Shown here: positions 23,873 through 60,000 of the stretch, in pieces | Layout of the letters: every line of letters begins with the position of its first letter | Position numbering within the stretch: the first letter of the stretch is position 1 | Assembly: GCF_037042905.1 (NCBI RefSeq) | Contig: NC_087245.1 | Coordinates: forward strand, 19,780,001-19,840,000 | Direction: 5' to 3' | DNA length: 60,000 bases | DNA from: Lytechinus pictus | Taxonomy: Eukaryota | Position numbers and translations under genes: made by a program | The notes under the pieces: generated by a model | The model's input: the letters and a program-made list of their open reading frames with translations, nothing else | The model's database searches: none | What the model was told of the DNA's origin: nothing

Positions 23873-25542
23873 TGTGAACAAATCTACTGCGATGGTGCTT
23901 AGATCGCAGTGCTCGACATCTCATTTTTAGGGCACCCTGTGCACACCTATATACATATTTCTAATGTAGCTTTGGCATCATTATAGACGTGCTATATTAA
24001 TCTAAATTTCTAATGATTATTATTTTGGCGACAGTGAAGGTGGAATAAATCATCGTTCATTTTGAAAAATTCACGCCTTCATGATTTTTCTTTCAAACTC
24101 CAGTATAATACATTCAAAATTGGTGAAGGGAGGGGAGTTTTTCCGACACGTGTAATTGCGTCCCGACTTGAATGCGCAGAAAGTGAAAATTGGGCACAAA
24201 GAGAGTCAGAAAGAAATGGAATTAGGACCATATTAATCGAAAAAGGACGAAATGACAGTTATTATTTTTTTTGTATTTCCTGTTGCTATTATGTTTATAA
24301 TGGTTAAATTTCATTTAAATTAAAATAATTATTCATGTTAATATTATTTTGTTTAACATTTTCCTTGCAAATCTGCTGATTCATATTTCGCAATGTTGTG
24401 GCATAAGCAAAAAGACCGAACAATATAGGAAATTTAATTATGGTGAGAGATTTTCTTTAAACAACGATATGTAAATTCAATGTATATGATTTTAATCACG
24501 TGTTTGATGAATATTAAACAAGAAAATAAGACGAAAAGTTGCCCTTTTCACTTCCTTTCTTCTAAAATAATATTGCATATCTAATTTTGGCCTATACATA
24601 TATAGATTAGATGCATGACTGTTATTACTGTTATTGAATCTTATCAATTGGTGTAATGTGGATTTCCCTGAAAGTATATTCCACATTTTTGTCAGTGGAG
24701 ACACATTTTAATAATCAGGAATTAATTTTGGTCAAAGAGTCACAAGTGTTACATGTTGAAAAATACATTCTTAAAATGTTTGGCAAATCAAGTTGGCCAA
24801 TATTGTTTGTTCGTTAAAAAATATAATTATGGGCAATTACAATTTTTAGTGGGCAATTCTGTTTGTGCATATTTGTAAATGTTGTGAAATACTTTGTGGG
24901 GTAATAGAGAAATATATTAAAATTCAAATAAATATCAATGTTTCAAGAAAAGTGAAAGCGTAAAGTATTATTTTTTACAAATATTTTTTTCCATACAGAA
25001 ATGTTTTGAACGGAATGCTCGGCATATTATAATATGTTTTCTAGACATAAGTCTTCTAGTCATATGTTATAGCCCTGGAATAAGGATTACATTAAATTTA
25101 CTAAATAACCATTGCCGAATAAATGCAACATACTCTCAGGTTGAAATCCATTTTATTGTGACTTATGGTATAAAGTATACTCGTGTGATTATCGTAGTTC
25201 AAGTTTCAACTTATACTATATAATCTTAAGTTATGAAGCTATATATGAGATCCTAAGATTTAGTTGGAACTTCAAAGTTTGCCCAGTAGTTGGGTAAAGT
25301 CTAACGGGTTACCAACTGATGGACAATTATATACTGCCCAACCGCATGATATATCGATTACTAAATATTAGTTGGGCAAATTTTAACCAATAGTTGCATG
25401 GACATTATATGATATCCATTGTTGGTAAGAAAAATTTGCCCAACTATTTTACGAAAGTAGGCAAATAAATTTCCTTCGGTTATAATCCTACAGAAAAAAA
25501 CATGATATCCTGGATTATGAAATACTTGCTGCTGCCACTACT

Positions 25543-25880
<338 letters not shown>

Positions 25881-28368
25881 ATGCGGTCTTCCTTTTTAAT
25901 TTCTACATGCACCCGTGCAAGTTGGTGAGGCACAAGCCCTTTGTCTACTTTAATACTCATCAATATTTCCTAGAAAATGGTTATTGTATGATATTTTCAA
26001 TATATAAATCGCGTGGGAGGGCAAAAACAAATACATATATTCATTTAGTTAGTGCTCTGTTGACTTCATTACCAGATTGTTAGTCATCATTTTCATTTTG
26101 ATTTTTTTTTTTAAGTAAGAGGGAGAAAGAGAAAGGAAAGAATGGTAGGGGAAAGTAAGCCAAGGAGAGTCGGACGAACGAAGCCATAAGTTAGTTGGAG
26201 AATTGCCTTGCGAACGAGACCTCATCTTTCAGACGTCGACACGTAAATCCAAGATGACGTATTTCTCGTGTGAGATACAATGTAGTCTTAAAATACAGAC
26301 CAAATATTCGTTATATTCCCATTATCCTCAAGATCACCATGCACCGGCCTGATCAGCCTATTCGTCGACATGGTTTTCGAATTTCAACTGTCAGGGTTCA
26401 TGGGAGTAGAAATATTATGGAAAACCTATTTTTCGATAGGACTAACGTATTATTACGAAAAAAAATAAAGGGACATTCTGTCGTCACATAGGCTAATTAT
26501 CATTGATGATGTAGTGACACATGGTTCAGAACAATGTAAATATAAGGTTTAGTGCTTATTAGGTTAGGAGGTTAGCTTTTATATTTAACTTAACGTGTGG
26601 ATTTTCAATTGGAGTAATTGTCGCGGAACAGATGCCATATGGAACCGGTATTTATACCAGTTCTAAAACGTCCATGTTGGGTGTGTCATCCTGCATTTTT
26701 TTATAAATCTGTTGTGTTTAAATAGAATTCAAACCAAAATTAACTTAGAGTGAAATAGTTTTGGGGTATTTTTCACTTTTAGATTTTACTCATAGTCTGT
26801 TTGTTATTTCCGTTTTAAAATAGCGTTATCTTGGTCTCTATGTTTGAGTGGCTAATCCCTGTTAAGTACTTTCTTTAATCGACGAATCCAAATATGCATA
26901 TTATAAATACGCAAATCAGCTTTTATTAAACTTTTTTTTTAGTGTTTTTTTTTTGTTTAGTTTCAAATGTTATTTTAGTAATACATGACCCTAATCAGCG
27001 AGGGGGGCAAGGTCAATTGCACTATACCATAACTTTTGGAAACCTATCCTTTTTATGCTTCAAATCATTCCTTTCTTTGAACCCGAAAAAATCCATTTTA
27101 CCTGTAAAAACTCGACTGTTTCGCTCCCTCGCTTACCTTTTTTTCATGTACTCTTGCTCCCCCGGAAAAAAATTGCCTATATACCTTTGCATTAATTGTG
27201 TCAAAGTAATGCATGGCTGCAATGAAAGAATCCAGTATCCATAAAGTTATTATATCCTACATGAGTTGCAGCAAATGTCATTGCAACCACCCTCTTAAAT
27301 TAAATAAACTTTAAAGCTATAGTATTTTGTAACTGGTTCGTAGGATTATGACCTCACTGACATGTTGATTCACTGTGTCTGTAGCCAGCATTTATTTTTA
27401 ATTTGTCACATCAAAATTATCACCAAAGAATACCTCAATTCTGTTCATGCAGGGAGTCGGGAATTCTCTCTGATTATCAAAGCGTAATCATATTATTTTA
27501 TCAAATCATTTAGGCGGAGATCCCCTTTCAGGCCATATATCAGTTGTGTCTTTATGACATTTTTTTTCATTTGTGAGGTGTATAGTTGACTCACATGTCA
27601 CCCAAACTATAGGAACAACCATCTTTTGGTATGCAGCCTCGCAATCTTGCATGATTTATGACAGATTTGTATTTTTGTAGAAGTAACATGGATGGATGGT
27701 CATTGCTTAACACTTCATGTACTTGGATACCAATGATGCTTTAGCTTGAAACTATAAACGAGTAACATCCATAACAGTAACACCCGAAACATACTCGTTT
27801 GATTTTCATTATTTTATACTCGGATAATGGTGCATGATTTCTTTAAGATTTTGTTTGTAATAACGTGGGCGGGTGGCTATCGGGTGTCCAGTCATTCTTC
27901 AGCTTGAAAATGCAAGCAATTGGTTAATACCCATAACATTAACATCCGATACACAATCATTTGTATTTTTTTGTTATAATATATTCGAATATATCGAACA
28001 TGTGATGATTTTGTTTGAGCAATTATAACAGGGGCATGCGGCTTATATTTCAAATACAGGAATGCAAGTTATGTATAATTTAAAAAAAATGATACCCCAA
28101 TTTTTACGATATGTTAAAAATGACAAATCATCCACATCACACAAGGCATGTTATATTCCCTTGTTGAAATATCAGACTTCACATTAATCAGTAAAATATT
28201 CTGATGGGGCGATTACTTGGACTGCAATACCAGTTGATATGAAAATGTGCCCAGCTATTTTGCGTCATCCAAACGAAAATATATATATATAAAAACTCAT
28301 GAAGGAATCCTAAAAATATATGTAGTAGGCCTATAGATTTTACACCTGAGAATTACACATAACCCCCC

Positions 28369-39299: not shown

Positions 39300-40321
39300 C
39301 GGGCGCTGACCGACCTATTATTACGTAACTCATAACAATCAACAAACAATCAGCTCTATGCTCACGGTATCGAAAAACGTGAGTTCCGATGTCATATTTG
39401 ATTGTTCCCCGGGATCATTCCTTGGGGGCTTTTCAAATAATTCTTGTATTTAAATATCTTGGCACAAAAAGTATCATTTGTAATATTTTACAGGTAAGAA
39501 ATCCTAATGAAATATGTTTTCATTAACTTTATATGTCTGTATGTTTCCCCGCAAAAATGCATACAATGAATGCATGTGTAGCGTTCAAAAGCGATGACAA
39601 AATAACCCCCGCTGAAGAATGTATTCTTCCAAGGCACGTGTATCTGACAAATGTGTTGATGGGTTTCGTTCTGTGTGCATGTGTGGAATTAAAGTCTACA
39701 GAGCTCGAAATGCAGTTTATGTATTACCTAAGCGACCTAATTTTAGAGTGAACTCACGTTGGGGTGCAGACGATATCTGAAAGTGGGGATATGGATGCGG
39801 CATAACCAGAAAATAATTAATATTGCGCTATTTCCTTCTCGATGTACTTTCGAGATAGATAACTGCCCTCTTTGCCAGATATCGGGCAAGAAACATCTCG
39901 CATTGTACTATCTTGCAGTAGGATGCAATTGTCTGTGTATAAGAACGATAAATCTACAAGAAAGTCTTGAGAATCTTTCTCGCTCTCGAAGGAATCAGAC
40001 GTGTCTCCGGTCCACGACTAGTCGCTTGCTCGGGAACAAAACTCGGTCACCAGTTCAACTCGTCGGATATCCATCGATATCGAAAAGCTTCGCATCCAGT
40101 GCAGCAGCGCACCTGTCGAACATTAAAATCTTTATTTCAGCGGGGAAAGTCAAACAGGGTCTATCAACGCTATTTTGTATACATTGATGAAGACTGAAGG
40201 AACTGCCAAGTGTCGTCTGCTACATATAATAACTGCCAGGACTTTAACGGCAAAACACTACCAACAGTCGGTGATCCTTGTTTAATTCTGTTGTGTCTGG
40301 TGTTTTTAGAGTTCAAAACTG
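39300..40321 (+). promoter_or_regulatory. Candidate promoter and non-coding first exon of the nuclear receptor
   Basis: CpG-rich, non-repetitive stretch ending in a strong CTG|GTGAGT donor at 40322. Contains D-box ATTACGTAAC (39320-39329) and E-boxes at 39376, 39635 and 39755. The ATG exon begins with an acceptor, so an upstream exon is required. The start boundary is approximate. Confidence 0.5.
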
Positions 40322-53100: not shown

Positions 53101-53677
53101 CTGATATAATATGCTGTAATGATTCCTTAAATTGATTGCCGCATATGTCCAAGCAACGTGACTTGATCGAGGGAATACAGCTATTTGTCGGTGAAGACGT
53201 CAGTCATAAGATGAATCTTGTTGTCATGTTAGCTTCTTGAGGAGCGTCATTAAAAAAAAAATGAAAATCTTCAAATCTTTTCTTTGTGGCTCACATTCAG
53301 TCCACGCGAGTATTGGATTTGAAGCCATATAGTTATAAACCAACATTTATTTGTACTTTTTTATTAAAAACATTGAATTGAATTACATTCAAATTGTTTT
53401 TGTCATTGTTCCTCTTTTTATTTTTATTTTTTTTACATTTTGTTTTGCATCCACTCTAGATTTTGGAGGAAAGAATCTGATCTCCCTTTTGTTATCAGTA
53501 TTTCTACTTTCTCTGATATTTTATTTCACAATCCTTTGGGTAATTCTATCCACTTTTTCTTTTTGTTTTACTTTTAGTAAAATGAGAAAGTGGATTATAA
53601 TGAATATTGATTTGTATCAATACAACTTAGTAATGGATTAATTGAATTCTCTCATTGATTGTGTTGTTACAGGTTGA

Positions 53678-53785
53678 ATGATGATGACGTCGATATCAAC
53701 CAGTGGGTATGCAGTCTTATGCCGTGTGTGTGGAGACAAAGCCTCCGGGTTCCACTATGGTGTGCATGCATGTGAAGGCTGCAAG
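53678..53785 (+). CDS. NR1D (Rev-erb/E75)-like nuclear receptor, coding exon 1 (start codon and zinc finger 1)
   Basis: Acceptor AG at 53671-72, then an in-frame TGA and ATG. Encodes [36 protein letters not shown] (P-box CEGCKG). Donor GTAAG at 53786. Confidence 0.95.
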
Positions 53786-54243: not shown

Positions 54244-54388
54244 GGTTTCTTTCGAAGAAGTATCCAACACAATGTGAAATATCGGGTGTGTAGTAAGGGA
54301 GACGAGTGCCTGATCATGAGAATTAATAGGAACAGATGTCAGTACTGTCGTCTCAAGAAGTGCCTTGCAGTCGGGATGTCCAAAGATG
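54244..54388 (+). CDS. NR1D-like nuclear receptor, coding exon 2 (zinc finger 2)
   Basis: TAG acceptor. Encodes [48 protein letters not shown]. Phase-1 donor GTAAG at 54389. Confidence 0.95.
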
Positions 54389-54819: not shown

Positions 54820-55034
54820 CTGTCCGACTTGGTAGATGCCCCAAGAAGTGCAAACCCCAGGGTTTGTTGATGCCCTCCCCGCCCCGCTCTCCTGCAGGGG
54901 ACGGGGACACCAGTGCCCTGGAGGACTCACAGATGAAGACTGAGCAGCTAATACTCAGCATCCATGAGGCACAGAAGAAGACCTTATGGGATTGGGGCAT
55001 CCTACAGTGTAGGAGTTACAACCTCTTATCGCAG
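54820..55034 (+). CDS. NR1D-like nuclear receptor, coding exon 3 (C-terminal extension and hinge)
   Basis: TTTGTAG acceptor, phase-compatible. Encodes AVRLGRCPKKCKPQG...EQLILSIHEAQKKTLW...LLSQ. Donor CAG|GTGAG at 55035. Confidence 0.92.
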
Positions 55035-55484
55035 GTGAGATGGTCTGCCTGACATAGCACACATACATGTATTCTGGGATTTTAAGAAGACATTTTATTA
55101 TTCTTTGATTCAGCTGGGTTCAGCTTGAGGAGGGGGAGAATTCCTGGGTCAAAAGGCCCCGATCCAAGGAGTCCTTCAGCATTCATGTCTTTGTGATTAC
55201 TGAGGGCAAAAACAATATAACCTTTACCTTAGATATAACCTACTCTTAACCCACTCCCAAGCGCTATCATTGTCTGTGGCCGCAGAACTAAAACAGCATA
55301 GCAGATTATCTTTAATATCTGCTTGAGATGAAACATTGATGATTATTATGTTGTTCTTCTATGGTAAACTTCAGAGGGCTCTGCAGCCTCAAAGATGAAG
55401 GAATTAAAAAAAAAAATAAAAGTAAATGAAAATTCTGTTGGTGGTACTAATATTGTTGACCTATTTCTCCCATGTCCCAATCAG

Positions 55485-55893
55485 GTTTCAGATAACAATA
55501 ACAATAATGGAGACAGCGTAATGGCAACCCGTTCAAAGATCATCAACAACCTCATCACCAACAACTTCACGGCGTCCATCACCCGCATCATCAGCTTTGC
55601 CAAACTAGTTCCGGGTTTCCTAACGTTAGACAAGTCAGACCAGATCACGCTACTCAAGCAGGGCTCGCTGGAAATCCTCCTGGTGCGGCTGGCTCACTAT
55701 CTAAACACTAAAGAAGAGGGCGCCAAACTCATCGAGAGCTGCCAGTCGGCTTGCCAAATGCTGGAGGAGTGCGGCCTGATATCGATCAAGGAGATCATGC
55801 TGGATGTGGTCGACTTTGCAGAGAAATTCAAGGCATTGGGTATCGTGACAAGCGAGGTCGGACTCTTCACTGCAATTATCCTCCTCAGTGCAG
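55485..55893 (+). CDS. NR1D-like nuclear receptor, coding exon 4 (ligand-binding domain H3-H8)
   Basis: CAG acceptor. Contains the LBD signature FAKLVPGFLTLDKSDQITLLKQGSLEILLVR and EVGLFTAIILLSA. Phase-1 donor GTAAA at 55894. Confidence 0.92.
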
Positions 55894-58911: not shown

Positions 58912-59200
58912 ATTGTCTAGTGGTTACGATTCTTGTCTTTCAATCTGATGGACGTGGGTTCAAATCCCAGCCATGATATGTTTTCCTTCAGCAAGAAATT
59001 TACCCACATTGTGCTGCACTCAACCCAGGTGACATTAATGGGTACCGGGCAGGAATTTATTCCCTAAAATGCATGTTCACTGTAGATATTTACGGCTGCC
59101 AAGCTAAAGCTTGGGTAATAATATCCAAGTCCTTTCAAAGCACCTATAGATGTTATAATCATAATGTAATATGCACTATACAAGAACTGTGTATCATTAT
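58912..59200 (+). mobile_element. tRNA-derived SINE in the last receptor intron
   Basis: TTGTCTAGTGG A-box-like motif, GGTTCAAATCCC B box, and the core shared with the 2060 and 34884 copies. Confidence 0.75.
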
Positions 59201-59463: not shown

Positions 59464-59663
59464 ATCGTCCTGGGCTGAAGTACCCTCATCAGATAGAACC
59501 GCTGCAGCTTCAGGTCATACAGGCCCTGCAGTCACAGGTCATGCACAACCATCCCAATGACCGTTCCGTGTTCCCTCGTCTCGTCACCAGACTATCAGAC
59601 GTCAGACAATTCAGCGTCATCAACTCTGACAAGATGCTCAATATTTTTGATGGGGGAAAATGA
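59464..59663 (+). CDS. NR1D-like nuclear receptor, last coding exon (LBD H9-H11, no H12)
   Basis: TTTACAG acceptor. Encodes DRPGLKYPHQIEPLQLQVIQALQSQVMHNHPNDRSVFPRLVTRLSDVRQFSVINSDKMLNIFDGGK then TGA. All exon phases join to about 358 aa. Confidence 0.93.
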
Positions 59664-60000
59664 GGCACTGCTCCTTAGAACAATCATGTATTAAAGACAG
59701 TTGAAAGGAACTTTGTATTAAGAGATAGATGACTGACGGCTCTGTGCGGACTATAGAGGGCAGTGTTTATTGTGGCCATGTCAATCATAAGGACCATCGA
59801 GAGAATGAAGAGATAGTGTTTGTAGTGACATAGTTACAGACCACCGTCTGAACATGTGTGTCTCGTCCGATGCTAGGAGGGTTTTCTCATCATATCACCA
59901 CTTTGTCCCCCATGACTGCAAAGACTCATAATTTTGACAATTTCTTTCCAAGCTGCGCTATGAATGAATATCAATGAGCAACTGAGGGATGTTTCACAAA

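Follow-up and report, generated by a model that had tools for sequence, protein, structure and literature searches.

The described nuclear receptors closest to the gene analyzed here are Rev-erb alpha and beta (NR1D1/2) with insect E75 (NR1D3), PPAR (NR1C), and a number of mollusc genes that are filed as PPARs in the accessible part of Kaur 2015 (PMC4388693). According to the portion of Pardee 2009 (PMC2652392) available, Cys384 and His568 are the iron ligands of REV-ERB-beta, W402, F405 and F454 contact the heme, and a C384A/H568A double mutant still binds some of it; the residues lining the REV-ERB-beta groove are listed there as well. Apo REV-ERB-alpha bound to the NCoR ID1 peptide is presented in the accessible text of Murray 2022 (PMC9681850), and oyster CgPPAR (CgNR1C) is reported to be without H2, H2' and H12 in that of Vogeler 2017 (PMC5398557).

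We analyzed a stretch of 60,000 nucleotides of the sea urchin Lytechinus pictus (hereafter, the window), where tblastn with 11 relatives found an NR1 gene as the sole receptor gene. Like Rev-erb and E75, which provide its best PDB matches and 72-78% identity in the DBD, the product combines a C4 DBD with the P-box CEGCKG and an NR1 LBD, ends after H11, and carries a corepressor groove; unlike them, it is missing Cys384-Pro385 and His568, has W402, F405 and F454 replaced, and shows GRCPKK in the T-box instead of GR[IV]PK. With PPAR it shares the P-box CEGCKG, DxRQ in H10, and an LBD identity of 23-32%, but the sea urchin protein has no H12/AF-2, its T-box differs, and the DBD identity is lower. 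Its likeness to mollusc PPAR1/CgPPAR lies in the T-box VRLGRCPKK, the motif CL[IV]MRI, a hinge helix, the lack of H12/AF-2 and, in the rows displayed, the lack of the Cys-Pro that precedes H3; the differences are an Asn where those proteins have Tyr or Phe or, in a single Mytilus-type paralog, His, an LBD identity of only 23-27%, and mollusc groove residues that are less Rev-erb-like. The reading we favor, with moderate confidence, is that this gene represents, in the sea urchin, an old bilaterian NR1 group that stands apart from Rev-erb/E75, that it is orthologous to mollusc PPAR1/CgPPAR, and that it encodes a heme-insensitive repressor.

Gene structure and transcript evidence

Five coding exons on the forward strand encode a 358-aa NR1 receptor whose sequence is that of RefSeq XP_054753267.1, named 'NR1D2-like' (Lytechinus pictus; P0001 in our set). 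Exon 1 (53673..53785), whose joint is seen in runs X23, X24 and X20, contains the first zinc finger with the P-box, and exon 2 (54244..54388) the second one with the motif CLIMRI. Exon 3 (54820..55034) encodes the T-box VRLGRCPKKCKP (54822-54857) and the hinge helix QMKTEQLILSIHEAQKK (54930-54980); exon 4 (55485..55893) covers LBD helices 3-8, with the groove residues F184, I192, K196, I210, L213 and K214 and without a pre-H3 Cys-Pro. The last exon (59464..59663) adds helices 9-11 and, with no helix 12, reaches the stop codon TGA at 59661-59663, which is followed by a transcribed 3' UTR (59664..60000, forward strand) that, by read depth and the X20 contig, extends past the window end. An in-frame TGA directly precedes the ATG at 53678, which limits the A/B domain to 14 aa.

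Splicing was checked in four of the 24 RNA-type runs (X20, X21, X23 and X24), in which all four joints, each of them GT-AG, were observed, with strand information in X21 and X23. Support for the last joint, 55893>59464, comes from 51 reads in X21, where depth is about 55-60, from 27 in X23, from 4 in X24 and from one X20 contig, and no rival joint from donor 55893 appears among the joints listed for these four runs; the check for an alternative last exon applies to the window, beyond whose end the 3' UTR continues. No variant at 59622-59624 is present among the variants listed, and in the X20 contig across the last exon the sole differences are those at 59917 and 59968 and a gap at 59879. Assembly error, polymorphism and an alternative last exon are thus ruled out as sources of the C-terminal features described below, in four of 24 runs and by the orthologs. 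An in-frame pair of Cys-Pro codons, TGT-CCC (55473..55478, forward strand), does lie inside the acceptor tract of intron 3, but it is spliced out and absent from the protein; its use is ruled out by the joint 55034>55485, and X21 and X23 have no intronic depth in the bin 55168-55388.

The C-terminal end, the heme site and the corepressor groove

A sequence-only reading of this locus had proposed a Rev-erb-like receptor with no AF-2 helix, with Asn in place of the heme-binding His, and with no Cys-Pro ligand motif ahead of helix 3, and all three features hold in the spliced product. The frame that runs from 59400 on the forward strand ends in SDVRQFSVINSDKMLNIFDGGK with no AF-2 helix, and AAC at 59622..59624, on the same strand, encodes Asn346 at the site of REV-ERB-beta His568 and REV-ERB-alpha His602, in an ungapped match of the last exon to human REV-ERB-beta. 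When the last exon was compared to PDB with phmmer, in fact, the Asn fell over the H of 'lnnmhseell' in REV-ERB-beta (E 2.7e-08), and the C-terminus of turtle NR1D1 (P0292), DLRTLNNMHSEKLLSFRIDAQ, also aligns without gaps with the sea urchin end. The single Cys-Pro of the 358-aa product is the one at C91 in the T-box. An AlphaFold model (mean pLDDT 64.6, mostly 75-95 in the LBD, with the DBD at low confidence) terminates in a single helix, 328-356, and a fold search returned generic nuclear receptor LBDs only.

In an echinoderm alignment, the sequence-only reading would have been contradicted by orthologs with His; Asn was found instead in all 18 echinoderm and hemichordate rows, which come from five echinoderm classes and two hemichordates, count near-copies, and include one row (P0200) called by a local motif. 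The Asn is therefore a fixed trait and not an error. The absence of helix 12 is unsurprising, as Rev-erb lacks it too and the same is published for the oyster relative. The loss of His is also weaker evidence than the sequence-only reading implied, since the double mutant of the heme ligands retains some heme and since NR1 receptors that work without heme, namely LXR, PPAR, ROR and E78, have this His as well. Asn at this site is also found in a protein of the PPAR clade, P0076.

Mapping through an NR1D2-type protein placed the smaller residues N177, I180 and L229 at the heme contacts W402, F405 and F454. Eight of the 11 corepressor groove positions mapped are identical or conservative (F184, I192, K196, I210, L213, K214, M350 and I353), and three differ. 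Past the T-box, alignment A1 has no invariant Cys or Tyr, and the only invariant His residues are H133 and H322, the latter in an NHP motif common to Rev-erb and PPAR.

Relatives sharing the T-box

Among 296 proteins gathered, 61 have the T-box VRLGRCP: 18 ambulacrarian and 43 mollusc or annelid rows. The residue at the heme-His site in these 43 (near-copies included) is Tyr in 30, Phe in eight and His in four, with one row truncated. An AF-2 core motif past the site was found in none of the 60 scorable rows of the clade, and a stricter control motif, which 12/13 PPAR-like, 13/13 ROR and 13/20 E78 rows contain, was found in none of the 61. Three motifs, defined in this analysis and absent as criteria from the published papers, are common to the ambulacrarian and mollusc/annelid rows: the T-box VRLGRCPKK, CL[IV]MRI and the hinge helix. 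CL[IV]MRI occurs in all 18 ambulacrarian rows and in 42 of the 43 mollusc/annelid ones, versus none of 132 Rev-erb/E75 rows. A profile of the hinge was prepared from ambulacrarian rows alone, over columns not used in the tree; with a cut-off of at least 8 bits, it recovered 43/43 mollusc/annelid rows, 0/132 Rev-erb/E75, 0/13 PPAR-like, 0/13 ROR and 2/20 E78. Overall identity tells a different story in the LBD, where the sea urchin protein is 31-36% identical to chordate and protostome Rev-erb/E75 versus 23-27% to the mollusc group; in the DBD, the identity is 72-78% to chordate, protostome and hemichordate Rev-erb/E75 versus 56-62% to PPAR-like rows.

The likely mollusc orthologs include published genes. 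P0211 matches CgPPAR in its length of 499 aa, in the D-box ENPKG, and in the primer-encoded ends MVHG and DDTNC, and the VRLGRCP group also includes Lottia 238472 and a Biomphalaria protein of 391 aa. Lottia 238472 is PPAR2 in Table 1 of PMC4388693, and the 365-aa protein is PPAR1 in S3 Table of PMC5398557; judging from these parts of the two papers, the PPAR1 and PPAR2 labels of Lottia 238472 (365 aa) appear to have been swapped between them. A Mytilus-type paralog (P0067, P0197, P0198 and P0199) has His at the site, within STMHSEK, and its sister copy has Tyr; this His could represent either ancestral retention or a reversal.

Separate Rev-erb-like genes

Proteins that group with Rev-erb/E75 were found separately in the starfish Acanthaster (P0074), the crinoid Antedon (P0075), the brittle star Amphiura (P0083), the sea cucumber Holothuria (P0157) and the acorn worm Glandiceps (P0022). 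Their existence makes it unlikely that the sea urchin gene is a Rev-erb that lost its His, and the gene is probably not Rev-erb itself. In four of six pairs (Glandiceps, Antedon, Amphiura and Owenia, not Acanthaster or Lottia) the longest contigs for the two genes are equal in length, which indirectly suggests an old linkage of the two on one chromosome. Human PPARG and NR1D2 are linked too, and for this reason the linkage is compatible with a PPAR origin as well.

The Rev-erb-like proteins vary in their own heme ligands. Glandiceps P0022 retains the Cys-Pro, the Trp and the His; the four echinoderm proteins sampled, none of which is from a sea urchin, all lack a Cys-Pro between the T-box and the LBD, and two of them, those of Amphiura and Holothuria, have Tyr for His. 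Tyr or Phe is seen at the site also in the tunicate-type Rev-erb rows P0066 (named Phallusia REV-ERB), P0086 and P0125. Over 132 Rev-erb/E75 rows, the residue is His in 121, Tyr in four and Phe in one, and six rows gave no call.

Phylogenetic placement

The main tree was built from 57 chosen rows over 261 columns of the DBD and LBD; its PPAR, E78, ROR and RAR labels were assigned here from motifs, most such rows carrying no database name. A DBD+LBD phylogeny of this kind had been suggested to place the gene, and it did so in part: the ambulacrarian and mollusc/annelid halves are joined (97/94), but the position of the joint clade beside Rev-erb/E75 is weak (86/52). In trees without the T-box columns or from the LBD alone, the halves split, with the long mollusc branch going to PPAR (86/74 and 89/66) and the ambulacrarians near or among Rev-erb (80/88 without the T-box).

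Membership in a clade already described, which the sequence-only reading had also raised, holds in that the likely mollusc orthologs have been described, although a published statement on the His was not found. For NR1CDEF, the primer-encoded peptides of CgNR1CDEF, the sole comparison material, match no protein of the clade. The CgNR1CDEF-alpha primer translation does share a 5-residue peptide with Ptychodera P0051/P0195, a hint that the latter may be a deuterostome ortholog of NR1CDEF-alpha.

Discussion

Two other histories and one other mechanism have to be weighed against membership in an old group shared with molluscs. The gene could be a truncated paralog of the PPAR lineage, whose product might bind RXR and block PPAR/RXR sites, or sense lipid without an AF-2. 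An AU test does not reject the clade joined to PPAR (p 0.23), H10 carries DxRQ as in PPAR, PPAR-clade P0076 has the same Asn, and the mollusc genes are grouped with PPAR in the parts of PMC5398557 and PMC4388693 available. However, the DBD is closer to Rev-erb/E75 (72-78% vs 56-62% for PPAR-like rows), the concatenated tree sets the clade with Rev-erb, albeit weakly (86/52), the sea urchin protein has no H12, and both S. purpuratus PPAR accessions given in the accessible part of Kaur 2015 (PMC4388693) differ from XP_785820; we consider such an origin unlikely. Rather improbable, in our opinion, is a Rev-erb duplication confined to ambulacrarians and followed by the loss of heme binding, with a likeness to mollusc PPAR1 that would be convergent or ancestral, a scenario in which the mechanism would be the same and only the history different. 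The tree without the T-box does place the ambulacrarian group among Rev-erb/E75 (80/88), AU tests reject neither its union with ambulacrarian Rev-erb (p 0.198) nor that with Rev-erb without the molluscs (p 0.19), the best PDB matches are REV-ERB, and the same-size longest contigs in Glandiceps, Antedon and Amphiura suggest a chromosome shared with the Rev-erb-like gene. Against it stand three independent motifs, which 42-43 of the 43 mollusc/annelid rows have and none of the 132 Rev-erb/E75 rows has, and the equal contig match in the annelid Owenia, which points to a duplication that predates ambulacrarians.

The remaining alternative concerns mechanism, and proposes that heme or another small ligand is still bound through other residues, so that repression would be ligand-tuned and not constitutive. 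The strict fixation of Asn in about five classes and the hemichordates suggests a role, possibly as a polar ligand contact, the smaller N177, I180 and L229 could leave a cavity, and some heme is retained by the REV-ERB-beta double mutant in the part of PMC2652392 available. On the other hand, alignment A1 offers no invariant Cys or Tyr past the T-box and no invariant His besides H133 and H322. Asn is not known as a usual heme-iron ligand, and we give this alternative little chance.

The sequence-only reading had left a choice between a heme-independent constitutive repressor and an NR1D-related paralog with a different ligand. The former is plausible on the residues described; the paralog option gains support from the Asn in 18 of 18 rows and from the separate Rev-erb-like genes. 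As far as sequence can tell, the function is most likely that of an orphan repressor that has a corepressor groove and no Rev-erb-type heme site. As the Cys/His pair that fixes the heme iron is missing, the repressor would be insensitive to heme and gas, and the missing AF-2, together with the very short A/B domain, leads us to prefer constitutive repression with no heme bound in the Rev-erb manner. The P-box CEGCKG and the T-box would direct such a receptor to half sites of the AGGTCA type, and its open H3-H4-H5/H11 surface would hold NCoR/SMRT-type corepressors in the manner of apo Rev-erb-alpha. Lacking an AF-2, and with hardly any space for an AF-1, it would not be expected to recruit coactivators, and repression, unresponsive to heme and gas, would be set by the receptor's own expression level. 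More tentatively, and with odds that we put below even, the data could be extended to a so far unrecognized bilaterian NR1 group that is the chromosomally linked sister of Rev-erb/E75, present in ambulacrarians, molluscs and annelids, not seen in chordates and ecdysozoans, and entered under the name 'Rev-erb' for echinoderms and 'PPAR' for molluscs, together with an echinoderm-wide loss of Cys/His heme-gas sensing in both genes, retained by hemichordates. If the sister-group reading were true, 'PPAR' would be the wrong name for the oyster receptor.

Part of this is already known, in that the gene has an annotation and its likely orthologs in molluscs appear in earlier papers. Within the accessible content of the open-access literature (including PMC7827873, PMC4070562, PMC11093393, PMC8363021, PMC9939569, PMC5041327, PMC13666137 and PMC9559826) we found nothing on Asn at this site, which alignments in the supplements of Vogeler 2017 may display, and no report of heme-ligand loss in an echinoderm Rev-erb. 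Nor did the open-access literature contain a link between the echinoderm and mollusc genes, while Howard-Ashby 2006, Capitao 2020, Watanabe 2024 and Ura 2025 may name or place the gene. These distinctions matter because database names make the gene resemble an echinoderm clock gene Rev-erb, and the likely mollusc ortholog serves as 'PPAR' in work on endocrine disruption by organotins; if both are members of a single separate group without AF-2, what has been published under those names on expression and toxicology needs to be read again. A natural, putative repressor of Rev-erb type without heme ligands, alongside Cys-less echinoderm Rev-erbs, would also provide a direct test of the need for heme sensing in repression and in the clock role.

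Other features of the window

Intron 4 contains, at 58925-59200, a high-copy transcribed repeat with read depth in the thousands, the loose ends of which resemble the head of a tRNA-derived SINE; ARAGORN found no tRNA in it. An ORF of 53 codons lies at 39619-39780, and its first part matches the N-terminal extension in P0014, an old S. purpuratus gene model (68% over 41 aa); given the stop before the receptor ATG, this is probably sequence from upstream or from the 5' UTR that has been conserved. A long TAC/TAT trinucleotide microsatellite at 25500-25900 gives rise to spurious poly-Tyr and poly-Leu ORFs.
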